A stretch of 64,000 bases of DNA from Candidatus Omnitrophota bacterium (lineage in GTDB: Bacteria > Omnitrophota > Gorgyraeia > Zapsychrales > Fredricksoniimonadaceae), in NCBI GenBank assembly GCA_903908245.1, contig CAIVRE010000020.1:2758-66757 (forward strand), given 5' to 3'. Position numbers and translations under genes: made by a program. Every line of letters begins with the position of its first letter. The first letter of the stretch is position 1. Below the pieces are notes generated by a model. It was not told the DNA's origin. It did no database searches and was given only the letters and a program-made list of their open reading frames with translations. Shown in pieces: positions 3,238 to 57,727 of the stretch.

Positions 3238-5686
3238 ACTGTTTAAGCGCGGCTAACAGGTCTCCGCCCAAACGCTCACGAACAACATTAAGATATTCAT
3301 TGTTTCGCGGCTCAGTATTGGCCGCCCAGTACAAAAAAGGATCCGGTACAAGCCTTATTACACCGGACGATGACGGCGTTATCACCAATGCCTCGGAATA
3401 CTGCCCCTTGACCATATTCAAAGATCGCAAAAGGGCAGTACTCTCCTCACTAAGAGACAGCTCCCTCTTAAAACCTTCGATCAAACTGGGATCCTGTCTT
3501 AAAAATATTTTATTGGAGGTGTTTGCCAGAACAGCTCCCCCTGCTTTCTGCTGAAGAAGGTCGCCAGCCTCCTGCGTAACGGCCACCGCTGAACAACGAT
3601 ACTTCCGGAAGGTCTTGAATGCATTGGCTATAAAATCAGCTGTATTAGACATCTTGAGCAACTGCCATGCTTCATCGATAATGAGAAACTTGCGCTCCGC
3701 GACCACGGCACTCTCGGAGACAAAATTGGTAATAAAGAACATGATATTCAATAACACGACCAGCTGCAGATCAGGATAACGTGACAATTGCGCCAGCTCA
3801 AAGACCGTGAAACGCCCGCAAGACGACAGCTCATTGGGCCCATCGAAGAACTGTCCATACTGCCCATCTTTAGTGAAAGGCGTCAAGCAGAGCGCGAGCC
3901 GTTGCCCCATATCCGCAGGCAATCCCTTCGCTTCACTACAAAAAGGATCTTTAAGCACTTTAACAATATCGCTCAGAATAACCTCTCGGTCCGGGTTTTG
4001 TTCGTACGCCTTGAGAATACTGATCTGAAGCAACCCGCGTTCTTCACGCCCCAAGCGGTCGCGTTCATCGCCACCGGAAGCCATCATGGCAAGCATCTCG
4101 ACCAAGAAAGCTTGGGTTTCCGCTGTAGGTCTTCGATAGAACGGATTAATACACAACGGCTTATCCATCTCGAATGAAACGTACTGCCCGCTTAATACTT
4201 CACATGTCTTGCGATACGAATGCCCCTTGTCCAGTACAAAGAAATATGCGCCGAGACGATAATTCTGATAAATAAGATCGTTGGTCAAAAACGACTTCCC
4301 TGCTCCGGAAGCCCCAATGATCACTGCGTGCGGATTAGTATCAGAGTCGAAGAAATCAATACCTACAGTCTCTGCCCGGCGGTTAAGATACAAAGCCGCC
4401 GGCGTACGCGTACCCCGGAAAGCCCCATACCACGGCAGCAGATCACTAAAGTTATCCGCTAATAACCGACGTGTTCTGCGAACAAAATGATCATAGGCAT
4501 GATCAAAATTCAGCGGAAGGCAGCTCAAGAACAATGAAGGCGCAATAATCTCCTCTTTCAATCCCTCAGCTCCAAGACGGCTGAGGCTGGCTATGAATGC
4601 GTCCGCAGAACGATCCGCTTCATCGGCGGTCGCTGCAAACGGGATAAAATGAACCCGGCCATATACCACCGCCCTGCCGCCTTTAAATGATTCGCTGATC
4701 AAAGAACTAAGCTCTTCTTTCTTCTGGACCGCCTCTTCACTGATATCCCCCAATGAGGAAGTTCTTTGAATAAACGCAAACGCCTTCTGGAATTTAAGAC
4801 GCGCAAGCGCCTGCGATTGATCGGGAATAATAAAATTCATGACAACCAAGAATTCACGACAAACATCTAAAAGAGACGGCCCATTGCCTGAAGAACAGGT
4901 GACCATGCCTGCCCAAGTCCTCGATGGAAGCTCTTTAAGTGTAACCACACGGGTATGCCGGCCATCAAGGACAAACCCCCGTCCTTCAGCTAATGGCGCG
5001 TTATACAGGATCTGATCCCTGATAAAACGCCCCGCGGTTTTCTCTTTTTTCACCTGAAGTGAACGACGCGGATTAAGCACACGATACAAGAAATGGATCA
5101 CATCATCCGCATCCAACACTTTTAACAGCATCCCTGTTGCACGCAAGGCATTCTCGAAAGGGACAACAAGCTTCAAGAACGTTTCATGCTCTTTTTCAAA
5201 AATACCAGGGCCATAGTGACCCCCGACGACAAAATACACACGTGCGCGTCCAGGCCAGGATGGTGCTTGAAATTGAGGAAAATACCGGGCCGTGAGGAAC
5301 ACCCTTAATTCACGGGGAAAAACAGTCTTTTGCAAATGTTCAAGTTTCTCATCGATGGCTGCCCGCACGATCCCGGAGGCCTCTTTCACCCCGGCCATCC
5401 GATAATCGTCCAGGTTCGCACTGATATCCGTATCACTCCAAAGAATAACTTGAAGGCAAAGCCTGGATGAAAGGCGGCTCAGAATGCCCGCAACCTGGGA
5501 AGAAAAATCATCCAACATATCCATGGAAGCGGCCTCTGCCCCAAAGGGCTTGACTTCCCACACCCGGCCAAGGCTGCCATCGACATTCACAAAAACACCT
5601 CCCACCTCATCCGCATACGGTAAATGATCCAGCAGCGATGGCCCCTCATTAAATATCTTCTCAATATCCAAAGCCGTTAAAGCCAT
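3206..5686 (-). CDS. traC: TraC/VirB4-family conjugative type IV secretion ATPase.
   Basis: 826 aa. The Walker A region VIIGASGAGKSFLTNDLI...FVLDKGHSYRKTCEVLSGQYVSF...INPF aligns with F-plasmid TraC (SGAGKT...DMGDGYKSLCENMGGVY...FNPF). Confidence 0.8.
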   Translation of the reverse strand: MALTALDIEKIFNEGPSLLDHLPYADEVGGVFVNVDGSLGRVWEVKPFGAEAASMDMLDDFSSQVAGILSRLSSRLCLQVILWSDTDISANLDDYRMAGVKEASGIVRAAIDEKLEHLQKTVFPRELRVFLTARYFPQFQAPSWPGRARVYFVVGGHYGPGIFEKEHETFLKLVVPFENALRATGMLLKVLDADDVIHFLYRVLNPRRSLQVKKEKTAGRFIRDQILYNAPLAEGRGFVLDGRHTRVVTLKELPSRTWAGMVTCSSGNGPSLLDVCREFLVVMNFIIPDQSQALARLKFQKAFAFIQRTSSLGDISEEAVQKKEELSSLISESFKGGRAVVYGRVHFIPFAATADEADRSADAFIASLSRLGAEGLKEEIIAPSLFLSCLPLNFDHAYDHFVRRTRRLLADNFSDLLPWYGAFRGTRTPAALYLNRRAETVGIDFFDSDTNPHAVIIGASGAGKSFLTNDLIYQNYRLGAYFFVLDKGHSYRKTCEVLSGQYVSFEMDKPLCINPFYRRPTAETQAFLVEMLAMMASGGDERDRLGREERGLLQISILKAYEQNPDREVILSDIVKVLKDPFCSEAKGLPADMGQRLALCLTPFTKDGQYGQFFDGPNELSSCGRFTVFELAQLSRYPDLQLVVLLNIMFFITNFVSESAVVAERKFLIIDEAWQLLKMSNTADFIANAFKTFRKYRCSAVAVTQEAGDLLQQKAGGAVLANTSNKIFLRQDPSLIEGFKRELSLSEESTALLRSLNMVKGQYSEALVITPSSSGVIRLVPDPFLYWAANTEPRNNEYLNVVRERLGGDLLAALKQCAKEHPYGVR

Positions 5687-9014: not shown

Positions 9015-10237
9015 ACAGCTCCCTTTCTTTTGAACATCATCAGAGGCAACAACAATACAGCCATCGCCAACAATCCCACAACACCTACCAGAGGCATATC
9101 CCACAAAAAGACTTTTCCCCCGTATAAAATATTATTAACATCAAACACCAGCGAGGAGACACGATCGATGATCGCCCAAAACAACGGGATCAATTTCAAA
9201 ACAAAAAGATATTTCAAGAAAACCCACAACAAAGAAATATCAGAACTAAAGAACACAAATACCAGAAAAAATGGGAATGCCGCCCATACACTCCAAAGGC
9301 ACGCTCCATACAGGACCGGAAAGACCGACAGCCAGACACGGCTCATCTGGTCCACCATAGCGCCCGCTCTGACATTTAAAGTCATGCTGCGGGCCTGAGC
9401 GGTCTCCTTCTGCCCCGAAAAACTCATGGCCGTATATGCCCATGAAGCATGGGCGGCATCCGCCTCTATTAACGCACGCACTGCCGCGTCTTTTAAGGAA
9501 CTGCCGTCATAATAATCGCGTGAAACCCTTTCAAATAACTCATCCTTGTTGATGAACGTATAAATAGCATCTTCCAACACCCTCCAATCGGATGCAGCCT
9601 GAGACGTATATAACGGAAGAATTTCCTCAGAACCTGGCCATAATGACTGTCCAACCAAAGGATCTTTTTCATTGAGCGTACGCAAGGCCTGAAAATAATG
9701 ATCCTGATAGAAATTAACCAGTTTCTCTTTTAACAACTGATCATTAAGACCCGCCATCAATCGATCCCGTGTCAACAACCAAAACTTAGACGTAGAAAAA
9801 GGCTCTTTCAGGAAACTTGCATTATGACCACGCGCCCGATCAACCACCGAGATCATGCCATTAGTGAAAGCGGACATTCCTTCTGCGAGAAACACTACTA
9901 CGGGACTTGCCAAAAGTTGATCGATCCCGGCCTTCCTTAATATGTCATCAGTCCTGATTTGAACGTACCCGCCCCCTTCCATACCAGAAAGCGGCAGTCT
10001 TAGGGGCGTCCTCGGCATGATCAGCAGAAACAAAAAGGAAAAGAATATCGAACAAAAGAATATGACTGAGGAAAAATTTGCATTCTTCAAAGAACGCGAC
10101 ATAGAAAAAAGAAAACCGGAAACAAAAATAACCTTTCCTGCCAATGTCTCAATAAAAATATACCTCATCAAGGCTGAAGATTGATGAAGCCCAATCAATT
10201 CGAATGCGTTGTCAATTGGTGTTATTCCACAAGTCAT
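9011..10237 (-). CDS. Polytopic membrane protein, first gene of the operon. A VirB6/TraG-N-like role is possible.
   Basis: 408 aa. Transmembrane helices sit at both ends and flank a ~250 aa soluble domain. It is translationally coupled to the pilin gene. Confidence 0.4.
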   Translation of the reverse strand: MTCGITPIDNAFELIGLHQSSALMRYIFIETLAGKVIFVSGFLFSMSRSLKNANFSSVIFFCSIFFSFLFLLIMPRTPLRLPLSGMEGGGYVQIRTDDILRKAGIDQLLASPVVVFLAEGMSAFTNGMISVVDRARGHNASFLKEPFSTSKFWLLTRDRLMAGLNDQLLKEKLVNFYQDHYFQALRTLNEKDPLVGQSLWPGSEEILPLYTSQAASDWRVLEDAIYTFINKDELFERVSRDYYDGSSLKDAAVRALIEADAAHASWAYTAMSFSGQKETAQARSMTLNVRAGAMVDQMSRVWLSVFPVLYGACLWSVWAAFPFFLVFVFFSSDISLLWVFLKYLFVLKLIPLFWAIIDRVSSLVFDVNNILYGGKVFLWDMPLVGVVGLLAMAVLLLPLMMFKRKGAV

Positions 10238-48314: not shown

Positions 48315-49673
48315 TCAAGGATGAAGCTCGCCCTTTAGCTGATGCGGAGTGGCACGGACAATGCGGGCATGAACGATCTGTCCGGGCGTAAATTCGCCGT
48401 TCGACAAGGTAACGATCTTGTTGGCATCATTACGCCCATAGGCGGCGCCGCTTTTTACCTTACCCGCCTGCTCCATCATGATCGCCTGAACCTGGCCAAC
48501 AAGCAATTGATTCTTCTTTAACGAAATATCCGTTTGCATCACGTTTAACCGTACAATACGCCCGGTCTTCTTGTCCTCCGGGACATCATCTTTAAGGTCC
48601 CGTGCAGCTTTAGTGTTGGGACGTACCGAATATTTAAACATGAACGCGGAATCAAACTCAACCTCGCGCATCACCCTGACCGTATCTTCAAACTCCGCAT
48701 CTGTCTCGGTAGGAAACCCGACAATAACATCCGTACTCAGAGTGATCGACGGGCAAGACTGACGGATCTTGCAGACCAGAGCAATAAATTCTTTCCCTGT
48801 ATATCCACGGCCCATCAACTCCAGGACCCGGTCATTGCCTGCCTGAAGCGGTAAATGGATCTGCTTGCAGATCTTGGGATCCTCCGCCATCACCCGGATA
48901 AGATCATCAGGAAAATCCTTGGGGTGAGGCGACGTGAAACGGATCCGCTTTATACCGTCAACCCTGGCAACAGCCTCAAGAAGCCGGGCAAAATTCTTGC
49001 CCTCATGATGATAGGAATTTACATTCTGCCCGAGTAAAGTGACCTGTTTGAACCCTTCTCCCGCAAGACGTTCAACCTCCGCAATAATATTCTCAACGGA
49101 ACGGCTGCGCTCCCGGCCTCTTGTAAAAGGAACAATACAAAAAGAACAGAAATTATTACACCCGCGCATGACCGCAACCCAGGCGTTAACTCCGTCGGTA
49201 CGGGTAGGATAAATATCCGCATAAGTCTCGAACTCGGAAAGGGTCACATCATAGCCCTGCTGATGCTCCTGCTCCAAAGCGCGCAAAATATGAGGCAACC
49301 GTTTGTAACTGTCCGGGCCTACCACAAAATCCAAAGCCAATTTCTTGTCTTCCAAAAGCTCTTTGCGTAACCCGGTAGCCATGCACCCGAGAATACCGAT
49401 CAAGACCGCCTTGCCCTGCCTGCGATGACGGATCTCGTGAATATTGCCGTAAACCTTGCGATGCGCATTCTCGCGCACGGAACAAGTGTTGAGCATCACA
49501 ATATCAGCCGCAAGTTCATCAGGCGTAAACTCATAGCCGGCATCGATCAGGATCGACTTGACCAGCTCGGAGTCGTATTCATTCATTTGACATCCGTACG
49601 TAACCAAAAGCACACTGAGTTTTCGCTTTCCGTTTCCGTCGGTGTTTTCTCTATTTCTCTCATTTGCATCCAT
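48315..49673 (-). CDS. miaB: tRNA methylthiotransferase MiaB (radical SAM enzyme). The 5' end overlaps the integrated element.
   Basis: TYGCQMNEYDSE N-terminal domain, radical-SAM CNNFCSFCIVP and a C-terminal TRAM domain. An alternative GTG start lies near 49613. Confidence 0.85.
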   Translation of the reverse strand: MDANERNRENTDGNGKRKLSVLLVTYGCQMNEYDSELVKSILIDAGYEFTPDELAADIVMLNTCSVRENAHRKVYGNIHEIRHRRQGKAVLIGILGCMATGLRKELLEDKKLALDFVVGPDSYKRLPHILRALEQEHQQGYDVTLSEFETYADIYPTRTDGVNAWVAVMRGCNNFCSFCIVPFTRGRERSRSVENIIAEVERLAGEGFKQVTLLGQNVNSYHHEGKNFARLLEAVARVDGIKRIRFTSPHPKDFPDDLIRVMAEDPKICKQIHLPLQAGNDRVLELMGRGYTGKEFIALVCKIRQSCPSITLSTDVIVGFPTETDAEFEDTVRVMREVEFDSAFMFKYSVRPNTKAARDLKDDVPEDKKTGRIVRLNVMQTDISLKKNQLLVGQVQAIMMEQAGKVKSGAAYGRNDANKIVTLSNGEFTPGQIVHARIVRATPHQLKGELHP

Positions 49674-51256
49674 TTTGTTCCCTCTTCATAGCACATCTTC
49701 CAGGGCTCATTGAGCTCGAACTTCACGATCTCACGGTCCTGTATTTTGATCTCTTTGAATATGATCCTCATGAAAGTTTTCATGAGAAAACTTCTTCCCT
49801 CATCGTCCGCAGGCTCGGCGCGGAGCCTTAAAAGGAAGTCCTGGACGGCCCTCACGATGTTCATCGAATTGCGCCTGTCGATGATCTTGATCTGCACGTC
49901 CCGAATGTCCTGCTTGAGCCTCTTCTCTTCCTGACGTAAAGCATCAGCCTTGTCCTTGTAAAGTTCAAGGTTGATCTTATCCTCGGAGAAAAGCTCGTAT
50001 AAACCCTTCTGCTTGTCGATGTTCTTTTTAAGCAGATCCTCTTTCTCGGTCAACTGGTCCACATAGACCTTCTCAGGCTCGGAAGCGTTCAACTTAATAG
50101 CGTCCGTCAAGCCCTCAAGAACATGAACATTCTTCCGAATAACATCAATAATGTCCCAAGCCTGCTTTTCGATCTCGTCAGCAGTCACGGACTTATTGTT
50201 ACAGTTTATATGCTTTATCCCTACCGAAGAGCAGCGATACCAGGCACGCTTCTTCCCGATCCGGCGGTTTGAGATGACCATGACCCCGCGATAATTCCCT
50301 CCGCACTCATTGCACTTGAGAATGCCGGAAAGATGATAAATGCTGTTCCGAAACTTAACCACGGCATTGGTCCGGTTTCTGCTAAGAAGCACCTGGACCT
50401 CATCATACTCTTTTTGCGTAATGATCGGCTCGTGGGTGTTCTGGACCTCGATGACCTGGGTCGGGGCATTATTCACATACTTATAACCCTTGCCGAAGCC
50501 GTTCTTCGTCTTCTCTTTGGTGTTATAACGACGACGATTCCAGACAAGACTGCCAAGGTAAACCTTGCTCCGCAGTATGGTCGAAAGGAATTTGTTATAA
50601 AACCGGCCGCCCATCCGTGAAGGAACGCCGAGCGCGTAATAATGCGCGCATATCTGAGGCGTACTCTTACCGCTTAAATACATTGCGAAGATATCTTTGA
50701 CGATCTTTGCCTCTTCAGCGTGGACTTCGAGTTTCTTGGTCTCTTTATTGTAGCGGTAGCCATAAGGCGCATACCGCGCACCCTGCCAACGGCCTTTCTT
50801 GACACCCACGACCATGCCCGGGAACACACGCTCAACAAGCCGGTTGCGCTCGAACTCCGCGCAACTGCCGAGCATCTGGATCGCCATCTTGCCCGCGCTT
50901 GAGGTCGTGTCAAATGGCTCCGTGGCTGACTTATAGCCCACGCCAAGGTTTTCAAACTCTTCAAGCATCCCCAAAAGGTCCTTGAGGCGACGGCTCAAAC
51001 GATCCTGCTTATACACAAGGATCAGATCAAATTGCTTATTTCGCGCGTCCAGAAAAAGCCTCTGCAAGGCCGGCCTGTCCATGTTGCCGCCGGAAAAGCC
51101 GTCATCCATGTAAACATCCCTGTTAGGGATACTGCAAAAGACCTCCCAGCCGAAATTCTTCGCGTACTGCAAAAGAAAGTTCCGTTGAACCTCCAGGGAA
51201 TAACCCTCCCTGGCCTGGTCCTCCGTACTGACCCTTGTATATAACGCGACTCTCAT
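49583..51256 (-). CDS. Large serine recombinase (integrase).
   Basis: N-terminal resolvase domain ALYTRVSTEDQ...GYSL (catalytic Ser). This is followed by a recombinase domain and a CxxC zinc ribbon plus coiled coil. 557 aa. Confidence 0.85.
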   Translation of the reverse strand: MRVALYTRVSTEDQAREGYSLEVQRNFLLQYAKNFGWEVFCSIPNRDVYMDDGFSGGNMDRPALQRLFLDARNKQFDLILVYKQDRLSRRLKDLLGMLEEFENLGVGYKSATEPFDTTSSAGKMAIQMLGSCAEFERNRLVERVFPGMVVGVKKGRWQGARYAPYGYRYNKETKKLEVHAEEAKIVKDIFAMYLSGKSTPQICAHYYALGVPSRMGGRFYNKFLSTILRSKVYLGSLVWNRRRYNTKEKTKNGFGKGYKYVNNAPTQVIEVQNTHEPIITQKEYDEVQVLLSRNRTNAVVKFRNSIYHLSGILKCNECGGNYRGVMVISNRRIGKKRAWYRCSSVGIKHINCNNKSVTADEIEKQAWDIIDVIRKNVHVLEGLTDAIKLNASEPEKVYVDQLTEKEDLLKKNIDKQKGLYELFSEDKINLELYKDKADALRQEEKRLKQDIRDVQIKIIDRRNSMNIVRAVQDFLLRLRAEPADDEGRSFLMKTFMRIIFKEIKIQDREIVKFELNEPWKMCYEEGTKWMQMREIEKTPTETESENSVCFWLRTDVK

Positions 51257-51258
51257 CT

Positions 51259-51462
51259 TTATCCTTTAAGCGTACTGCGCCACGCCTTGATCTTCCTGAT
51301 ACATTCGGGTGTGAAGACCGGCCAATCGCGATAATCGCGCTTTGGCTTGATCCATCCCCGGCGCACCCAGTGGATCATTGTCTGCCGGTGAACGCCCAGC
51401 AACTTTGCTGTTTCAGTCATGGTGTAAGTTTTCATGGAAGCCCCTCGTTTAACAGCCTCCAA
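51259..51462 (-). CDS. HTH excisionase/AlpA-like DNA-binding protein, a candidate recombination directionality factor.
   Basis: TMTETAKLLGVHRQTMIHWVRRGWI helix-turn-helix. It lies immediately upstream of the recombinase. Confidence 0.6.
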   Translation of the reverse strand: MEAVKRGASMKTYTMTETAKLLGVHRQTMIHWVRRGWIKPKRDYRDWPVFTPECIRKIKAWRSTLKG

Positions 51463-51499
51463 TATATCGCGTCATACAGCGTTATACAACCACTTTCTT

Positions 51500-51700
51500 T
51501 CACTTTTCCTTCTCCGCCGGAAAAGACATTTTGAACATCCCGGCAAGAGCCGCCATACCCGCGTGAAAAGACCTCCTGGCCTGCTCAATCTCAACAGCAG
51601 ACAGACCCCGGGCCTTCAGCTTTTCTTCCAAAGCCTCCCAGCCGCGCAAGGGCTTCTCAATTTCGTGTACTTCGGGTATTTTTGCCTTAATCATATTCAA
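51500..51700 (-). CDS. Small hypothetical protein within the element.
   Basis: 66 aa ORF. It is co-oriented with the element genes. Confidence 0.3.
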   Translation of the reverse strand: MNMIKAKIPEVHEIEKPLRGWEALEEKLKARGLSAVEIEQARRSFHAGMAALAGMFKMSFPAEKEK

Positions 51701-52048
51701 AAATGGCTAAAACCTTCGCATTTTACGAACACGAAGTGATGAAAAAAATTTCGTGTCACTGACGACCCGCGGTCGCGCCGACCCGCGCCCGCCGCCCCCC
51801 TGTAAGGACCCGGAAGCACCCCCGGCCCTCACTCTGTGAGGTATGTGAGGGTAAAATCCCTACCCTTTTTTACCTTCACCTTCCACGCCTGTGTTGACCA
51901 CATTCCCGCCCTTCTTTCTCTACTTTTATAGAGAAGAGAAATAGCCTCACACTGCTCACAGCCTGCCCTATCCCTTTGGAGCAGGACGACTTGCCCCTGT
52001 GAGTACGCCTGTGACCAGACGTGAGCATGAACTCCTTTGCTCACGCCT
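51701..52048. promoter_or_regulatory. Non-coding region with repeated CTCAC/GTGAG motifs (TGCTCACAGCC, twice; TGCTCACGCC, twice).
   Basis: About 350 bp with no convincing ORF. Several copies of GCTCAC(A/G)GCC lie in both orientations. Confidence 0.35.
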
Positions 52049-54430
52049 TTAATACGGCCGTTCGCTGAACATATCCGAATCCTCCTCACAAACAGCATCC
52101 TTTCTCACGTCCTGCTCACGCCCATGCTCACAGCCTCCAGGCATCATCTTTCGGATGATGAACAGACGCCTTCCTGTGCCGCCTTCGCGCTTGTCCTGCT
52201 TGATGACATCAACACCCACATTTCGCATGACCGGGGCAATTCGCAGTAATTCCGTGGAAAGCCATTTGGCTGTTTTTGGCAGTCCATGTTCTTCACTGTC
52301 CCGGGGCGTTATCTCATAAAGCAGTTCCGTTGCTGATCCTGCCCAGTGCCCGGCGTGCCTATCCATAAGTGTAAGAAGTTTCTTGGCGAGGGCGCTATCC
52401 TCGGCCGTTTCCTGCCACTTTCGGTCAACAGACTCCTGATACTTGCGGAAGAACTCTTCCCTGGAATACCCCAGCGCCTCGGCCAATGCCGCACCCCACT
52501 GGGCAAAGTCTGACATCCGGAACTTTTCATGACCGGTTACAGACGACACCATGCCCATGGCTCTGGATACTGCCGTAATAAACCCACCGAAAATACCTGG
52601 CAAAGCAGTTTTCCAATCCTCCTCCATTGCCCTCTCAGAGCGTGTGTTCCTGAGGACCGGAATATCAAAGATGATCGCCCGATCCAACAGGTCTGCCCGC
52701 CACATCGAAGATCCAATGCCATTAAGGACAAAACAGCGACGGTATGAACGGATGAATTCATCGTCATTGGTATAAAGACTGCGCTTCATATCGCCTTCAC
52801 CGGTCACACCCCGGCAAAGGAAATCGCTGAACCATTCGATGATCTTGGAGATATTGTCAAAAGTGCTGAGCCAATGCTTCTCGGCAGTCATCTGCGCCTG
52901 TTCAAGGTCTTTGGGTGTTGAGATGAGCATGACGCGTGACGGATCACACAGCGCCTTGATCTTTCGGGAATTGTTCGACTTACCCGAACCCTGCTCCCCG
53001 GTCTGACTGATGATGACATGAGGAAAATTGGGAATAAAGAATGACGCCACAGCCACCATGAAAAGGCAATGGTCTAAAGGACTGACATTGCAGAATCGAA
53101 GAAGATCCCGGGCATTCCCGCCAGCAACTGGAATGACCTGCTCGGCCTGATGCAGATATCTCCGGAAGACCGGAGGCAGTTGGACTACGTTCCATCCATT
53201 CGCTGTTATCTCAACGCCCCGATGGTCAGGCGTGGTGAGGTCGTAATATATCTTTCCATCCGCCCATCCGACCCGATTGAACAGCTCAACCTGCCGGGAT
53301 GCTCCACACCTGGCCTCTATCTGAACACGCGCCTGGGTTAAAGCCTCGGTCTTGGGAGGAAGTCCGTAACGGTTACGGAACCGGATCGCCTTCCAGTTGC
53401 GGAACCTCATGCTTGATGTGGGGCAAACCTCAACATGCTCATCCACCGGCAGGACCACGAACGAACCGGCATGTTGATCCCGGAAAAAGTCTTTAATGTT
53501 CTCTTCGCAGTCCCGGGTGATGATCTCCCCCTGGCTCAGCTTACCCTTACCGGCTGGCCCCGGCGCCCTACCTTCACCATATGCCTCCTGACATCCACTA
53601 ATGGCCTTATCAATGACCGCTTGGCCATAGGTGCGCCCATCCGAGAAATGCTTCTCATCCCATTTAGGACGCATTAGACCCGATGCGCGGAACATCTCAT
53701 CCATAAGCGCCGCGTCCTTGCCTGTCCAGAAAGCCAGTTTCGCGCAAAAGGCCAGGTCAGCCTCAGACTGCGACGGATAATCGCCCTGCCAGTTCCCAGC
53801 CTTCAGCTTGGCAAAAGCTCCAGAATCTTTGCTCTTCTCGATCTTCTCAAGAATATCCTGACGGTGCTTGATCAGCGACTCTTTACGCTCACACTCATCG
53901 TAAAACGCAAGCACCTGTGACGCGCGATCTTCAATAGTTACCGCGTAACCCGGGACCAGGTCGCCGGTGACGGTCCAAAATCTTGTTTTTTGGTAGATCT
54001 CGATATCAAGCGTGCTGAATTTCCGCCCTTTTTCAAGAACGCCTTTGCAAAGAATATGAAGCCCGGTCTTTGATGGTGAAAATTCCGTGTAGCTGTTAAA
54101 GGCCTCGATGATCCTCCTGGCCCACGGCTGAATAACGCCATCAATGACCGAATGATCCAGATCTATCCCTACATAAGGCGGTTCTAGTCCGATCCCAACG
54201 GCATCGATCCCAGGCTTCCCGGCTCTCTTCATTGCCTCATCGAAAGAAGCCCACGTCCCCAGCTTATTGGACATGGCCTTGCCGCCGGTCCTAACATTGA
54301 CAGGCTCTTTCTTTGGTTTCTTGCCTTCCTGGGGAATGAACTTAAAGCCTATCCAGTTCGGCAGGTCTTTCAATTCCTGTGGAATGTTCTCAACGATCCA
54401 TCTCTTCTCTGTTCTTCTCTCGGTAACCAT
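52049..54430 (-). CDS. Primase-helicase, made of a bifunctional Prim-Pol N-terminal domain and a D5/P4-type SF3 helicase. The start is MVTERR.
   Basis: Prim-Pol motifs VGIDLDH and SPSKTGLHILCKG. Walker A GEQGSGKS sits in the middle. Confidence 0.7.
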   Translation of the reverse strand: MVTERRTEKRWIVENIPQELKDLPNWIGFKFIPQEGKKPKKEPVNVRTGGKAMSNKLGTWASFDEAMKRAGKPGIDAVGIGLEPPYVGIDLDHSVIDGVIQPWARRIIEAFNSYTEFSPSKTGLHILCKGVLEKGRKFSTLDIEIYQKTRFWTVTGDLVPGYAVTIEDRASQVLAFYDECERKESLIKHRQDILEKIEKSKDSGAFAKLKAGNWQGDYPSQSEADLAFCAKLAFWTGKDAALMDEMFRASGLMRPKWDEKHFSDGRTYGQAVIDKAISGCQEAYGEGRAPGPAGKGKLSQGEIITRDCEENIKDFFRDQHAGSFVVLPVDEHVEVCPTSSMRFRNWKAIRFRNRYGLPPKTEALTQARVQIEARCGASRQVELFNRVGWADGKIYYDLTTPDHRGVEITANGWNVVQLPPVFRRYLHQAEQVIPVAGGNARDLLRFCNVSPLDHCLFMVAVASFFIPNFPHVIISQTGEQGSGKSNNSRKIKALCDPSRVMLISTPKDLEQAQMTAEKHWLSTFDNISKIIEWFSDFLCRGVTGEGDMKRSLYTNDDEFIRSYRRCFVLNGIGSSMWRADLLDRAIIFDIPVLRNTRSERAMEEDWKTALPGIFGGFITAVSRAMGMVSSVTGHEKFRMSDFAQWGAALAEALGYSREEFFRKYQESVDRKWQETAEDSALAKKLLTLMDRHAGHWAGSATELLYEITPRDSEEHGLPKTAKWLSTELLRIAPVMRNVGVDVIKQDKREGGTGRRLFIIRKMMPGGCEHGREQDVRKDAVCEEDSDMFSERPY

Positions 54431-54432
54431 TT

Positions 54433-54663
54433 TTATACTCCGTTCTGAAAAATGAAATCCTTGACCTTTCGATAGCACTGGAAGAGCCGCTCTTCCTGGG
54501 AATTGTTAAAAAATCGTTCAGCGAGGATTCGAACTTCCCGGGTATCCTCAAAAAGAACCCTCTTCTGCCGGCCAACACCAGCCATACCCTTAATGACGCA
54601 TCCCTTGGACACCAGATACGCCGCCAGATAAATGTTGCCTGCTTCAAAATGTTGATCTTCCAT
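54433..54663 (-). CDS. Small hypothetical protein directly upstream of the primase-helicase.
   Basis: 76 aa. Its stop lies 2 nt before the primase ATG. Confidence 0.4.
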   Translation of the reverse strand: MEDQHFEAGNIYLAAYLVSKGCVIKGMAGVGRQKRVLFEDTREVRILAERFFNNSQEERLFQCYRKVKDFIFQNGV

Positions 54664-54775
54664 ATTTGCCCTTTCTCTTGCCTGAACAGGTCTTCTACCC
54701 TCTCCGTTAGACCTATACAGAGAAAATCTTCAAACTGCCGAAAATATTTTCAAAAATCTTTCAAACACCGTCTAT

Positions 54776-55480
54776 CTCTAGGGCGTACATACAGGAAATT
54801 CTTTGAAAGTGTCGGGATGATCGTAAAAATATTTTGTCTGCCCCCCTAAGGCGTATATAGCGCTAATTTCATAAAAGTGTTACAGGTCATCTTGAGAATT
54901 TTTACTTCTAATGCGTACATACCGCGAAATTCACGAAAGTGTCGGAGGGTTCATCACTTTTCTGACCTATACTCGTACATACCGCCTTTTCCCCGAGAAT
55001 GTCGCGCGAAATCCTAACTTTTCATGCCCCTCTTAGGGATATATCCGAAAAACCTCAAAACTGTGCCCAATTACCTCAAGAATTTTTCCACTCACTAAGA
55101 CATATGCGGAAAAACCCAAAAGTGTTGCATGATTGCTGAAAATAACCTGCTCAAGGGTCTTCATCTTGGATATAGCCCGAGAAAGCCAAAAATGTGTTAG
55201 GGCAATTCAATAATCCCTCACCATTGATATACCGGCAAATTTGACAAACTGTTACACACGAGCAAAGCCTTTTTTGCCTCTCAATGCGTATATATGCGAA
55301 GAATGGCAAAAGTGTATCCATGAATCTGCCGATATTCGCGCAACCCCTAAGGCGGATATATGCGAAACAATGCAAAAACTTGTACGCCATATCAGAAATC
55401 TCTACGGAAAAGCGCGCGAAGCCCCTTACTGCTGATATACCGGAAAATATGAGGAATTGTCGGAGGGTAATCGAGGAAAC
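54776..55480. repeat. Array of about 11 degenerate direct repeats with a ~62-bp period, iteron-like. Each unit has a palindromic GCGTATATACGC-like box followed by a GAAA...AAAGTGT box.
   Basis: Units start near 54781, 54848, 54910, 54972, 55035, 55098, 55168, 55226, 55286, 55349 and 55432. Examples are GGCGTATATAGCGC, TGCGTATATATGCG and GGCGGATATATGCG. Confidence 0.7.
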
Positions 55481-55578
55481 AAAAAAAGCCTGCCTCCGCA
55501 ATTAAGCGAAAGCAGACTTAACAAAAGCACCCAATAATTTATTATGAACGCTTAGAGCAAGCCAACCCTAACCACTCT

Positions 55579-55965
55579 TCACTTTTTACTATCTGACTTC
55601 ACATTCGCCTTAATGCAGGCGAGCAAATCCTCCAAACTCACCGGCTTGGCCAGACAGGGATAGTCATTAACCTTCGTTTTATGGCCGTCGCCTGCTTTAC
55701 GCTTGGCCACAAGGGCTGTTATATACACAATCGGAATGTCCTGGCAAATGGGGCAATCTTTCAACTCGTGTGCGACCTGGCATCCATCCATATCAGGCAT
55801 CATAACATCGAGCAAAATCAGATCAGGACGAAATTCCTTAACAATATCGCAAACACGACTTCCTTTATTCTCGACCCTGACATTATAAAGAGTTTTCAGA
55901 TTCGCCTTCACTCCCCGCGTGAAAGCCTCTTCATCATCAACAACCAGTATTCTTTTCCTGTTCAT
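55579..55965 (-). CDS. Stand-alone response-regulator receiver domain (CheY-like).
   Basis: ILVVDDEE...LILLDVMMPDMDG...K motifs. There is no output domain. Confidence 0.8.
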   Translation of the reverse strand: MNRKRILVVDDEEAFTRGVKANLKTLYNVRVENKGSRVCDIVKEFRPDLILLDVMMPDMDGCQVAHELKDCPICQDIPIVYITALVAKRKAGDGHKTKVNDYPCLAKPVSLEDLLACIKANVKSDSKK

Positions 55966-55978
55966 ACCCGCCCTCCAG

Positions 55979-57727
55979 TTATATCTTAAACCACAACGTT
56001 GCACGAACGCCCCGCCCGTTTGTCTTATTCTCCAACGCGATCCTGCCCTCATGCATCTCCATAATATTTCTTACAATCGATAATCCCAGCCCCGTACCAC
56101 CTACAGCGCGTTTCGTCGTTACGAAAGGAACAAACAAATCCTTAAGAATGCTCTCCGGCATTCCTGAACCATTGTCTTCGATCTGAACCATCACCATTTG
56201 CCGCTTGTCACTTGAGCCTGCCCGAAAAGTCCTGATCTGAAGATCCCCTCCGGATGGCATAGCCTGAATGGCATTCATAAAAAGATTTACAAAAACCTGT
56301 TCAATCTTGTTCCTGTCAATGCTCACTTCAGGAATGTCTTTTCCAAAATTCCTTATCACACGAACATTGCTTTTTTCGCGAGAATGCTTCACCAACGACA
56401 AAGATCTGTCAATCAGCACATGAACATCCTGTGTTTTAATTTCAAGCTCTGAGCTGGCTGAGAAATCCAAAAGCCCCTTGATGATCGTATCCGCACGATT
56501 AATCGCGTTCTCAGCATCCGCCAAACTGGCACTTACGTCCTCATCCTGGGATTTAACATTATTCTTGAGGTAATCCACGCTCATTTGGATCACAGCCAGC
56601 GGATTCTTTACCTCGTGAGCCACCCCGGCAGCTAATTTGCCAATAACCTCCAGTTTCGCCGACTGGATAAGCAATGACTGTGTCGCCCTTAATTCTGCGT
56701 TCTTTCTTTTTTGATCCCGATAAAAGATAAGCGCCGACAAGAACAGTGCGCCGAGAACAAGTCCAGCGAAGCTGATATTGTTTCTGGTGTTCCTTCTGAC
56801 CGGACCAGCGATCGTATTATAATCTATTGCGCTGACCAAAGACCATGTATTCCCTCCAAATGACACCGGCGAGAAAGCCACAATGACTTCCGCTGTCTTA
56901 TATGAATCATCCAAAGAAAACAACTGACATAATCCAGAACCGTCCTCTCCTCTGTGGATCCTCGCCATCAGCGCTTTAAATCGGATTTCCTCAAGAGATA
57001 AGTGCTTGTCCTGAAGGATCGTTAATAAACTCTGACCGAGATAATGATTATCGGGATAACTCAAAAGACGATCTTTCTGATCGAGAAGAAAGAAATGTCG
57101 GCCACCTTTTTCATTGCGACTCACAACGGCCTGCAAGTCTTCCAGGCTAATAACAGCACGCAACAGACCAACAAACTTGTCCTTACTGAATACCGGCTGA
57201 TCAAAAATCAGAACAGGCGTGCCCGAGGCCGTATTGACTATCCCGCTGGCATACACTCGATGATCCGCCGATTCCTTTTGAATATCATTCTCTGAAAAAG
57301 AAGCCTTTCCGACACTACTCCTGGGAGGAACTTCATAAATAATCCTGCCCTTATCATCAACCATGCTTAAAGAAGTCGCCAAGGATTTAACATCTTTATA
57401 GGAATCATCCAAGAAAGGAAACCCGGCTTCTTTTTCCCTGCCGTAACCATAAGAGAAGGCATCCTGGACGACCTTATCCTCGGAAAGAATTTCTAGTTCC
57501 TGCGTCAAATCAGAAATGCGTCGATTTAGCGATCGAGATTCTGAAGATACCGTTTCCAAAAGCTGCCGACGAGCGTTATCAACAATCGTTCTTTCAAAAT
57601 TATTGTGGTCTTGCCAAACAAAATAGCCGACAACGATCACCACAATGATCATGCCCGTGTATGGCAGTATTTTCTTTAGAAAAGTATCCATTGCTTGCCT
57701 TGAAAAGCACTCTCTGTGATTAGACAA
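55979..57727 (-). CDS. Sensor histidine kinase with an N-terminal transmembrane anchor and a periplasmic sensor domain.
   Basis: H-box AAGVAHEVKNPL, with N, G1 and G2 boxes (GGTGLGLSIV). Confidence 0.85.
   Translation of the reverse strand: MSNHRECFSRQAMDTFLKKILPYTGMIIVVIVVGYFVWQDHNNFERTIVDNARRQLLETVSSESRSLNRRISDLTQELEILSEDKVVQDAFSYGYGREKEAGFPFLDDSYKDVKSLATSLSMVDDKGRIIYEVPPRSSVGKASFSENDIQKESADHRVYASGIVNTASGTPVLIFDQPVFSKDKFVGLLRAVISLEDLQAVVSRNEKGGRHFFLLDQKDRLLSYPDNHYLGQSLLTILQDKHLSLEEIRFKALMARIHRGEDGSGLCQLFSLDDSYKTAEVIVAFSPVSFGGNTWSLVSAIDYNTIAGPVRRNTRNNISFAGLVLGALFLSALIFYRDQKRKNAELRATQSLLIQSAKLEVIGKLAAGVAHEVKNPLAVIQMSVDYLKNNVKSQDEDVSASLADAENAINRADTIIKGLLDFSASSELEIKTQDVHVLIDRSLSLVKHSREKSNVRVIRNFGKDIPEVSIDRNKIEQVFVNLFMNAIQAMPSGGDLQIRTFRAGSSDKRQMVMVQIEDNGSGMPESILKDLFVPFVTTKRAVGGTGLGLSIVRNIMEMHEGRIALENKTNGRGVRATLWFKI

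Follow-up and report, generated by a model that had tools for sequence, protein, structure and literature searches.

An integrated element preceded by an array of twelve units

The 64,000-nucleotide stretch of Candidatus Omnitrophota DNA analyzed here (contig CAIVRE010000020.1; hereafter "the window") contains an integrated element of about 6 kilobases (kb) and, at the head of its genes, an array of diverged repeats that is the subject of this work. All of the genes neighbouring the array lie on the minus strand. Moving away from the array, they encode a DUF5659 protein, a primase-polymerase/helicase, the product of a 66-amino acid (aa) open reading frame (ORF), a MerR/HTH_17 excisionase-like protein and a large serine recombinase, the last of these genes abutting miaB (Table 1). 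A preliminary description of the region had placed the array immediately upstream from a small ORF, now recognized as DUF5659, and from the primase-helicase gene of an integrated element, and this arrangement was confirmed. On the distal side the array ends at a terminator-like hairpin, beyond which lies a host response-regulator gene. The hairpin probably shields the array from read-through of this upstream gene.

Alignment with MAFFT and hidden Markov models (HMMs) resolved twelve co-oriented units, all on the minus strand. Eleven of them (units 1 to 11) coincide with the repeats originally noticed; the gene-proximal unit 0 is an addition. A repeat search of the region returned direct-repeat families (D1-D4) spanning positions 54779-55468, and Tandem Repeats Finder reported no tandem repeat, a blank result due to the units being merely about 60-75% alike. 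The start-to-start gaps measure 74, 68, 62, 60, 62, 62, 69, 57, 63, 66 and 79 base-pairs (bp), with a mean of 65.6 bp. The 62-bp period initially proposed thus holds as a loose period of about 62-66 bp; given the 57-79 bp range it is not strict, and the helical phasing that had been read into it is unsupported.

Each unit is a module of 38-45 nucleotides (nt) made of three boxes. The conserved columns of the array comprise a C-rich box (CCCYC or CCTAAGG), box A (GCGTAYATAC) and box B (AAAGTGTCG), boxes A and B being the most informative. Their distance is constant in the units where a simple pattern detects both. On the gene strand (minus), the consensus reads CGACAC-N15-(C/G)GTATRTAC-GC-TTAGGGG. 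In this orientation box B provides a -35-like element, (C)CGACACTTT, followed by a spacer of about 15 nt; box A provides a -10-like element, (C/G)GTAT(A/G)TACGC; and the third box is a short G-rich sequence, TTAGGGG, resembling a start/Shine-Dalgarno (SD) region. Box A had been taken for a palindromic 12-mer present in each unit. Self-complementarity reaches 10 of 12 positions in three of the twelve units (5, 9 and 10) and 6-8 of 12 in the others, and the form of box A found in phages (GGCGTACATTCC; see below) is non-palindromic; dyad symmetry is not conserved.

Table 1. Features of the element and of the array, with positions in the window
Feature	Position	Strand	Description
Large serine recombinase gene	49583-51256	-	Abuts miaB
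MerR/HTH_17 excisionase-like gene	51259-51462	-	
66-aa gene	51500-51700	-	
Putative second phage-like control region	51721-51812	-	Non-coding, just upstream of the 66-aa gene; two CGCGGGTCG + TTCGTGTTCGTAAAA
Candidate replication origin	51828-52132	.	TGTGAG/CTCACA words in both orientations, spanning the primase stop codon
Primase-polymerase (AEP, NrS-1-type with HBD) fused to P-loop helicase	52049-54478	-	809 aa; Pfam PF22763; PHROG primase families
DUF5659 gene	54433-54663	-	76 aa; Pfam PF18903; first gene downstream of the array
Unit 0	54703-54740	-	Gene-proximal; E-type CGGCAGTTT...CTGTATAGG; homologous to proximal E-type units of L001, L003 and L025; best phage match L202, score 14, p ~0.005
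Unit 1	54777-54814	-	CGACACTTTCAAAGAATTTCCTGTATGTACGCCCTAGA; phage-only HMM E=2.7e-8
Unit 2	54845-54882	-	Phage-only HMM E=7e-6
Unit 3	54907-54944	-	Best match to phage class I promoter (CCGACACTTT...GGTATGTACGC); phage-only HMM E=1.1e-10, 37.5 bits; local score 23 against L199
Unit 4	54967-55004	-	GCGACATT-type -35-like box; best phage match L212, score 17
Unit 5	55029-55066	-	Box A GGATATATCC, truly palindromic; weak phage-HMM match
Unit 6	55091-55127	-	Family D1; phage-match score 15, reached by 0/200 shuffles
Unit 7	55160-55199	-	Most degenerate; alone not significant against phage promoters (p ~0.23)
Unit 8	55217-55254	-	Family D4; -35-like box GTGTGTAACAGTTT resembles phage class VII; best match L185, weak
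Unit 9	55280-55317	-	Family D3; phage-only HMM E=2e-3
Unit 10	55346-55383	-	Family D3; placed by MAFFT/HMM alignment
Unit 11	55425-55462	-	Distal unit; families D2 and D4; phage-only HMM E=0.04
Terminator-like hairpin	55486-55519	-	14-pair stem and T run; distal array boundary

Mechanically called ORFs of 64-116 aa overlap the array. Homologous regions of related elements vary in unit number and spacing, indicating that these ORFs are not conserved coding sequence; the original view that the repeats harbour no convincing ORF is upheld. Small ORFs behind each SD-like box were considered and dropped as inconsistent and unconserved upon visual inspection. A period of about 65 bp also lies within the repeat-plus-spacer range of CRISPR loci. 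Nonetheless, a degenerate CRISPR-like locus, which the earlier description had also dismissed, is effectively refuted, as is a tandem of small RNA genes: the repeats are 60-75% alike and their "spacers" mutually related, an Rfam scan of the array region identified no RNA family, no cas gene is found among the five genes of the element and, as detailed below, the units are homologous to promoters lying directly before an SD sequence and an ATG.

Units of the same type in related Omnitrophota elements

A search with the primase yielded 28 loci, mostly in metagenome-assembled genomes (MAGs) of Omnitrophota, many with the same gene order and the same insertion on the miaB side; the element is conserved at miaB, with gene order kept, in at least 13 genomes. 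Analysis with an HMM of the unit placed the motif directly upstream from the DUF5659-primase genes, in the same orientation, in 17 related Omnitrophota loci. Trained on the relatives' units alone, a further HMM matches window units 1 to 4 (E-values from 1e-6 to 0.04) and nothing else convincing in the 64 kb. Together with the match to a phage-only model described below, this confirms that the repeats are conserved beyond random expectation.

The relatives' units fall into conserved subtypes, and their arrays end at a hairpin as in the window, with an A-run and hairpin at the equivalent position. Unit length depends on the lineage (38-45, 57-79 or about 100 bp), and spacing in the relatives ranges over about 38-110 bp. 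DUF5659 is present in every array-bearing relative except one (L005), where an XRE-type gene takes its place and about seven units are still found in gene orientation. In two loci (L016 and L017) the units point both ways, with each group directed at the gene that flanks it. Two others (L009 and L010) retain a homologous primase (55-59% identical) and have neither DUF5659 nor units, while in L019-L025 the primase has a different C-terminal half. Apparent unit matches inside the primase gene of L020-L024 were discarded as conserved coding sequence. Contigs encoding an identical DUF5659 protein also carry an identical array, leaving no micro-variation to exploit.

Single units flank sigma factor genes in phages and mobile elements

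In two relatives, L006 and L018, a single unit instead of an array lies between the upstream gene and the SD sequence and start codon of DUF5659, and a further unit, inverted, precedes a divergent integrase operon. The gene upstream from DUF5659 in these loci codes for a 190-aa factor of the sigma-70 family, which contains the Pfam domains Sigma70_r2 and r4_2, scores above the TIGR02937 cutoff and matches SigA and RpoS in the PDB. Sigma genes adjoin units in about 60 phage or mobile-element loci. In this setting, the unit-type module occurs in single copy, directly upstream from an SD sequence and an ATG and oriented with the gene, flanking a sigma-70-family gene of the extracytoplasmic function (ECF) type.

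The viral loci came mainly from searches of viral contigs with sigma alignments, which produced 16 loci at first and 43 in a wider search. Of the first 16 contigs, 12 carry a pair of isolated units, the first ahead of the sigma operon and the second immediately behind the sigma stop codon; the units of this set are gene-oriented, each followed by an SD sequence and ATG within about 10-20 nt. In the wider set, a unit lies directly past the sigma stop codon in about 29 of the 43 loci; in the others, direct coupling links the sigma gene to the gene behind it. L104, a locus with a serine recombinase, a sigma homologue, a ParB-methylase, TerL and two single units, had been identified separately by scanning viral contigs for a DNA pattern. 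It was the one real hit of a loose pattern that otherwise gave about 120 chance matches. Stricter two-unit patterns, run against metagenome and viral contigs, returned no further arrays and one chance match (L177). Throughout, single-copy units (those of L006, L018, L104, L175 and about 40 viral loci) have an SD sequence and ATG within about 10-25 nt. Inverted units face divergent genes; all twelve units of the window point into the operon.

To compare the array directly with phage sequences, an HMM was built from 23 non-redundant phage promoters (consensus CGACAC-N15-CGTAT/GGAAT). The model matches units 3, 1, 2 and 9 with E-values of 1e-10, 3e-8, 7e-6 and 2e-3, respectively, and seven further units more weakly; on both strands of the 64 kb it has no match outside the array at E<0.2. 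Unit 1 is 88% identical over 42-43 nt, spacer included, to both of the promoters flanking the sigma gene of a phage contig (L226/L202). By sequence comparison, then, the units of the array are homologous to sigma-flanking promoters, and single units occupy promoter positions in the orientation of the gene. This homology and the unconserved dyad of box A speak against the operator array for a dimeric helix-turn-helix (HTH) protein that had been entertained for the repeats.

Two further features recur next to the phage sigma genes. The gene that follows the sigma gene in viral loci L183-L225 always begins with M(T/Q)(D/E)VC(K/R)FKF, with or without an intervening promoter; this small conserved protein (L104 4044-4334) has no family match and could be a partner or an antagonist of the sigma factor. 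In addition, long hairpins with core GAGACACC-N13-GGTGTCTC and apparently compensatory stem changes occur in these genomes. In phages and elements a single copy covers the SD sequence and start codon of the sigma gene (L104 ~3360-3410, L175 ~9960-10000, L006 ~5150-5185). L006 (positions 4380-5100) and L018 also carry an array of about six hairpin copies, with a period of about 115 bp, apparently downstream from a leftward-facing unit: a second phage control element that appears multiplied in a small element.

Promoter classes vary with the sigma factor and are mixed in the arrays

The promoters that follow the sigma genes form classes differing in both boxes, for example CCGACAC...GGAATGTACGC, GTGTGACAG...GATATACAC, GCGACATT...GATATACAT and GCGAAAC...CGTAATAC. 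Sigma factors are on average 78% identical within a promoter class and 47% between classes, both means being uncorrected for shared ancestry. The helix of sigma region 4.2 also differs by promoter class.

Arrays mix these classes. L001 combines units of the L183, L222, L191 and L165 types, and L008 those of the L222, L199 and L185 types; the L005 array holds an L165 type (score 32). In the window, unit 1 resembles L202, unit 3 class I and unit 4 the L212 class. Such a mixture explains how the units can be diverged from one another and yet individually conserved. Arrays and sigma genes are inversely associated. By a uniform criterion, the 18 sigma-encoding loci have isolated units only and no tandem arrays, and 44 viral sigma loci (partly the same contigs) likewise lack tandem arrays, their clusters being of two units at most and almost all pairs divergent. 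Clusters of 2-10 detectable units characterize the window and each of the 17 DUF5659 loci without a sigma gene. Neither the 64-kb window nor these sigma-less relatives yielded a sigma homologue.

These data also bear on the idea that only the proximal unit works and that the remainder are decaying, functionless relics of tandem duplication. Some units (7, 10 and 5) are indeed weak matches, and in some lineages (L005 and the window) whole units, "spacers" included, look duplicated. Unit 0 is likely the working promoter of the DUF5659-primase operon. But the distal units keep the three boxes and the A-B spacing, with intervening sequence at 60-75% identity; unit lengths differ by lineage; individual subtypes recur from locus to locus and correspond to distinct classes of phage promoter; and clusters occur in all 17 of the DUF5659 relatives without a sigma gene and in none of those that encode one. 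Mere relics are quite improbable.

A further alternative is that the units are genuine promoters served by a sigma factor of the host, whether the housekeeping one or a chromosomal ECF factor, and form a strong or stress-responsive cluster without the need for a helper phage. By eye, the -35 (CCGACA) and -10 (TATATA/TATGTA) elements partly resemble TTGACA and TATAAT. With 630 proteins at E<1e-10 the sigma family is large, and as some members sit on long MAG contigs (up to 340 kb), host-resident copies may exist; the window covers just 64 kb of the genome. Against this, a scan with the sigma-70 consensus found none of the window units, which have an A where the -10 hexamer has its invariant T (position 6); nothing similar to the motif occurs elsewhere in the 64 kb; sigma genes whose surroundings were inspected belong to a phage or mobile element and adjoin a serine recombinase; and unit 1 comes close to identity with the promoters of a single phage contig even in the spacer, which is not contacted. 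Recognition by a host factor is therefore rather unlikely. Two other kinds of promoter were set aside on visual inspection: the spacing is wrong for sigma-54, and no single-subunit polymerase of the T7/SP6 type is present.

The array is an unlikely origin of replication

The preliminary description had named an iteron-type origin among its explanations. On this reading the units would bind the initiator of the element (the primase-helicase or DUF5659), and replication would begin within the array or beside it. Tandem direct repeats right before replication genes fit this scheme, as does the GC content of the array, which at about 40-41% is below the roughly 50-55% of the element. Autoregulated iteron plasmids would also offer a parallel for proximal repeats that overlap a rep promoter. 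Yet the unit does not follow the initiator. Single units lie beside sigma genes in phages that have neither DUF5659 nor this primase. The same sigma/unit layout is found with a DnaG-type primase in L175 and, in L226, with a phage replication module made of a SNF2 helicase, Pam3 gp33/34-like genes and a Prim-Pol/D5_N primase. Units also accompany the altered primases of L019-L025, and L009 and L010 possess a homologous primase without an array. The occurrence of the unit with four unrelated replication modules, as well as before integrase operons, ties it to the sigma factor and not to an initiator. The primase of the window has only distant relatives in viral contigs (33-39% identity), all without arrays.

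Other attributes of an origin are missing from the array. There is no TTATCCACA DnaA box (up to one mismatch) in the interval 51018-57575 and no 40-nt stretch reaching 77.5% AT in 54600-55600. Spacing is unphased, and units of 38-45 nt compare with about 17-22 bp for iterons. Taken together with a separate iteron-like cluster described below, these observations make an iteron origin unlikely. A centromere-like site, also mentioned initially, finds no backing: no ParA/ParB-type gene occurs among the five genes of the element.

One could still imagine the array as a series of priming sites, with the HBD-type primase-polymerase reading the GTG of box B (AAAGTGTCG) on the plus strand and synthesis starting at each unit. 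Residues 53-300 of the primase match NrS-1 N300 (PDB 6a9w, 6k9a) with an E-value of about 1e-29. NrS-1 polymerase recognizes 5'-GTG-3' in the template via its HBD and starts at the base just 5' of the GTG, and ORF904 of pRN1 likewise binds its recognition site via the HBD (PMC8718748). The divergent units of L016 and L017 would then afford bidirectional priming. GTG is too short a signal, though, to account for a three-box unit of 38-45 nt, and the unit occurs in phages and elements with other primases or none nearby. Box B varies by class (GCGAAAC, GACAGTT, GCGACATT), in step with the sigma clade, at times losing the GTG. The independence of the unit from the primase weakens the priming-site and iteron ideas alike, and the former is most improbable.

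A better candidate for the origin lies at the opposite end of the primase gene. Seven of the 15 TGTGAG/CTCACA hexamers of the 64 kb are concentrated there, around an AT-rich palindromic stretch (51912-51945), with the first copies inside the coding sequence of the C-terminal tail of the primase. Relatives with a full-length primase show the same layout, mostly 11-12 copies in about 330 bp (5-6 copies in L004 and L009); in the loci with 11-12 copies, the cluster accounts for most or nearly all copies of the word in the locus. The repeated word shifts with the lineage of the primase, to GTGAAC in L008 and L010 and to a mixed TGTGAAG in L004 and L009. In L009, which lacks both DUF5659 and the array, the cluster still accompanies the primase. 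Judging from this pattern of repeats, the cluster rather than the array probably constitutes the replication origin of the element.

Adjacent to this cluster, the non-coding segment upstream from the 66-aa gene is 83% identical over 93 nt to positions 9337-9428 of L226, where it precedes a ParB-like gene. This is a second nucleotide-level link to the phage contig that matches unit 1. The segment may represent another control region of the phage type, or else a cis site, pac for instance, common to element and phage.

Proposed role of the array

We propose that the array is a head-to-tail stack of twelve promoter modules, of the type read by ECF-like sigma-70-family factors of temperate phages and related integrative elements, activated in trans on a satellite-like element; we would put the probability of this reading at roughly 60%. 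Every unit points into DUF5659 and the primase-helicase gene, behind which lie the genes for the 66-aa product, the excisionase-like protein and the serine integrase. The element has lost, or never had, a sigma factor, and its units are poor promoters for housekeeping sigma-70; on both counts, it is probably silent when alone. A co-resident or infecting phage encoding a sigma of this family would supply the factor, holoenzyme carrying it would fire from the array, and replication of the element would be switched on, probably starting at the TGTGAG cluster and not at the array. Activation in trans by a sigma-encoding phage or element appears to be the most economical mechanism. The content of the element is of the satellite type: an integrase, a replication module of its own, a Xis-like gene, two small ORFs and no virion genes.

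As for the number of units, it could serve as an antenna or amplifier, confer responsiveness to several sigma factors, or act as a sigma sink. A bolder version of the proposal, which we regard as tentative, combines these roles: each of the dozen core promoters would fit the sigma factor of a different temperate-phage lineage, so that induction of, or infection by, any of these phages would switch on replication of the satellite early, and the array would at the same time soak up sigma, delaying or weakening the sigma-dependent replication and late programme of the helper.

Several points weigh against the proposal that the array is a stack of trans-activated promoters. Adjacency and co-variation alone suggest that the sigma factor recognizes the units. 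This host, of whose genome 64 kb are covered, has no known sigma-encoding phage. Units 7, 10 and 5, which match weakly, may be defunct. Internal units retain the G-rich, SD-like box with no ORF behind it to be translated, a feature that a pure promoter model explains only loosely. In relatives, units are often packed 38-45 bp apart, too tightly for simultaneous occupancy by RNA polymerase, and this packing fits a smaller factor or an alternative use better than additive promoter strength. Control of excision and integration may be separate from the array, as hinted by the segment shared with L226 upstream from the 66-aa gene. Finally, the element has no recognizable packaging or capsid-hijack gene and no recognizable cos or pac site, leaving its status as a satellite in the strict sense unproven.

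Comparison with known systems

The promoter of the ECF-type factor sigma-W of Bacillus subtilis reads TGAAAC-N16-CGTA. Like ECF promoters, the units are bipartite, with a -10 element of the CGTA type separated from the -35 box by an invariable spacer of about 15-16 nt. As in ECF operons, the phage sigma gene is preceded and followed by promoters of its own type, and its product has the two-domain structure (r2 and r4) that passes TIGR02937. Unlike in those operons, the promoter is here repeated twelve times in tandem, on an element with no sigma gene; the -35 core is CAC and not AAC, and the sigma family is borne by phages and mobile elements and not dedicated to envelope stress of the host.

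The late promoters of P4 are activated by Ogr of P2, and the late promoters of P2 by Delta of P4. Like P4, the element is small, has its own primase-helicase and integrase and no structural genes, and carries promoters that would respond to a helper factor. P4, however, relies on single promoters with an activator site at about -55, which are neither sigma-specific core promoters nor arrays; for the element, helper dependence is presumed and no packaging functions were identified.

Iteron arrays are known to titrate their own binding protein, as in incC/incA of P1, RK2 and R6K, or in the origins of phage-inducible and S. aureus pathogenicity islands (PICI/SaPI). They resemble the present array in being tandem, co-oriented, diverged repeats beside replication genes, whose multiplicity could titrate a factor. 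They differ in that here the units are 38-45-nt, three-box, promoter-homologous and independent of the initiator family, and the iteron-like cluster is located elsewhere (51828-52132).

6S RNA is a sink for sigma-70 holoenzyme. Repeated decoy sites can likewise sequester a transcription factor (Lee & Maheshri 2012, PMC3322331). In both cases, as might apply here, a limiting factor can be captured by numerous tandem sites, so that its other targets respond later or more sharply, the difference being that those decoys are synthetic or eukaryotic DNA or, for 6S, an RNA mimic. Overall, the logic of the array resembles, by analogy, a combination of P4/P2 trans-activation and decoy-site titration. 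Stacks of co-oriented promoters upstream from one transcription unit also have precedents, in the early promoters A1-A2-A3 of phage T7 and in P1-P2 of rrn; these, though, comprise two or three promoters served by the housekeeping sigma of the host, and not several classes for foreign sigma factors.

We found no description, in the searchable literature, of a sigma-promoter array on a mobile element lacking a sigma gene, and to our knowledge Omnitrophota is a phylum without studied mobile elements. If the proposal is correct, the elements constitute a family of minimal integrative replicons of Omnitrophota whose sole regulatory input would be promoters for sigma factors they do not encode, and sigma-based sensing would add to the known routes by which satellites detect helpers, among them late activators such as Ogr and anti-repressors of the helper. 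Titration of the transcription machinery by DNA could have a natural example in the array, which, should it act as antenna and sponge, would be a new way for a mobile element to sense and interfere with phages. ECF-type sigma-promoter pairs are usually functional in Escherichia coli. Two by-products of the analysis are a set of about ten co-varying sigma/promoter classes from uncultured phages and a separately located, primase-specific candidate iteron origin for an NrS-1-type primase-polymerase.

Genes of the element and cargo of its relatives

The AlphaFold2 model of DUF5659 (mean predicted local distance difference test score, 90) is a beta-alpha-beta-beta-alpha-alpha domain. Foldseek found no match to it in the PDB at E<0.5 and no similarity to HTH or winged-helix folds, and DUF5659 was accordingly dropped as a candidate binder of the array. 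The domain has no entry in PHROGs or NCBIfam and is unmentioned in the searchable literature. The true start of the primase is probably at about position 54430, two bases past the DUF5659 stop codon; the two genes appear translationally coupled.

At the other end of the element, the serine recombinase and miaB ORFs have about 90 nt in common (49583-49673), at the 3' end of the former and the 5' end of the latter. The same overlap is present in nearly all of the relatives integrated at miaB (L001-L004, L008-L010, L012, L013, L021, L024 and L025). MiaB proteins can be aligned from residue 1 even across distant hosts, which suggests that the element may supply or reshape the 5' end of miaB. Read-through from the element could drive miaB.

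Some relatives have defence-like genes beside or inside the element (L001 191-5138, L008 387-4867, L016 9938-14375). This cargo includes subunits of type I restriction-modification systems, a TPR protein with the PIN domain of the TPR-GreAB-C-PIN system, and Fic; the element of the window carries none of the kind. Past the hairpin that ends the array, a second promoter-like repeat (TTGACAATGGGGTCGTTACC..., or TCTCAAGRKGGTCNTTAC with AAAATAG) occurs in one to three copies before a divergent gene (L001 ~5150-5330, L003 ~5100-5330, L008 ~5000-5230, L025 ~5000-5130). In these same four loci a conserved sequence, ACAGTGATCAGCTGTCCCG, lies immediately past the hairpin and may be part of an attachment site.

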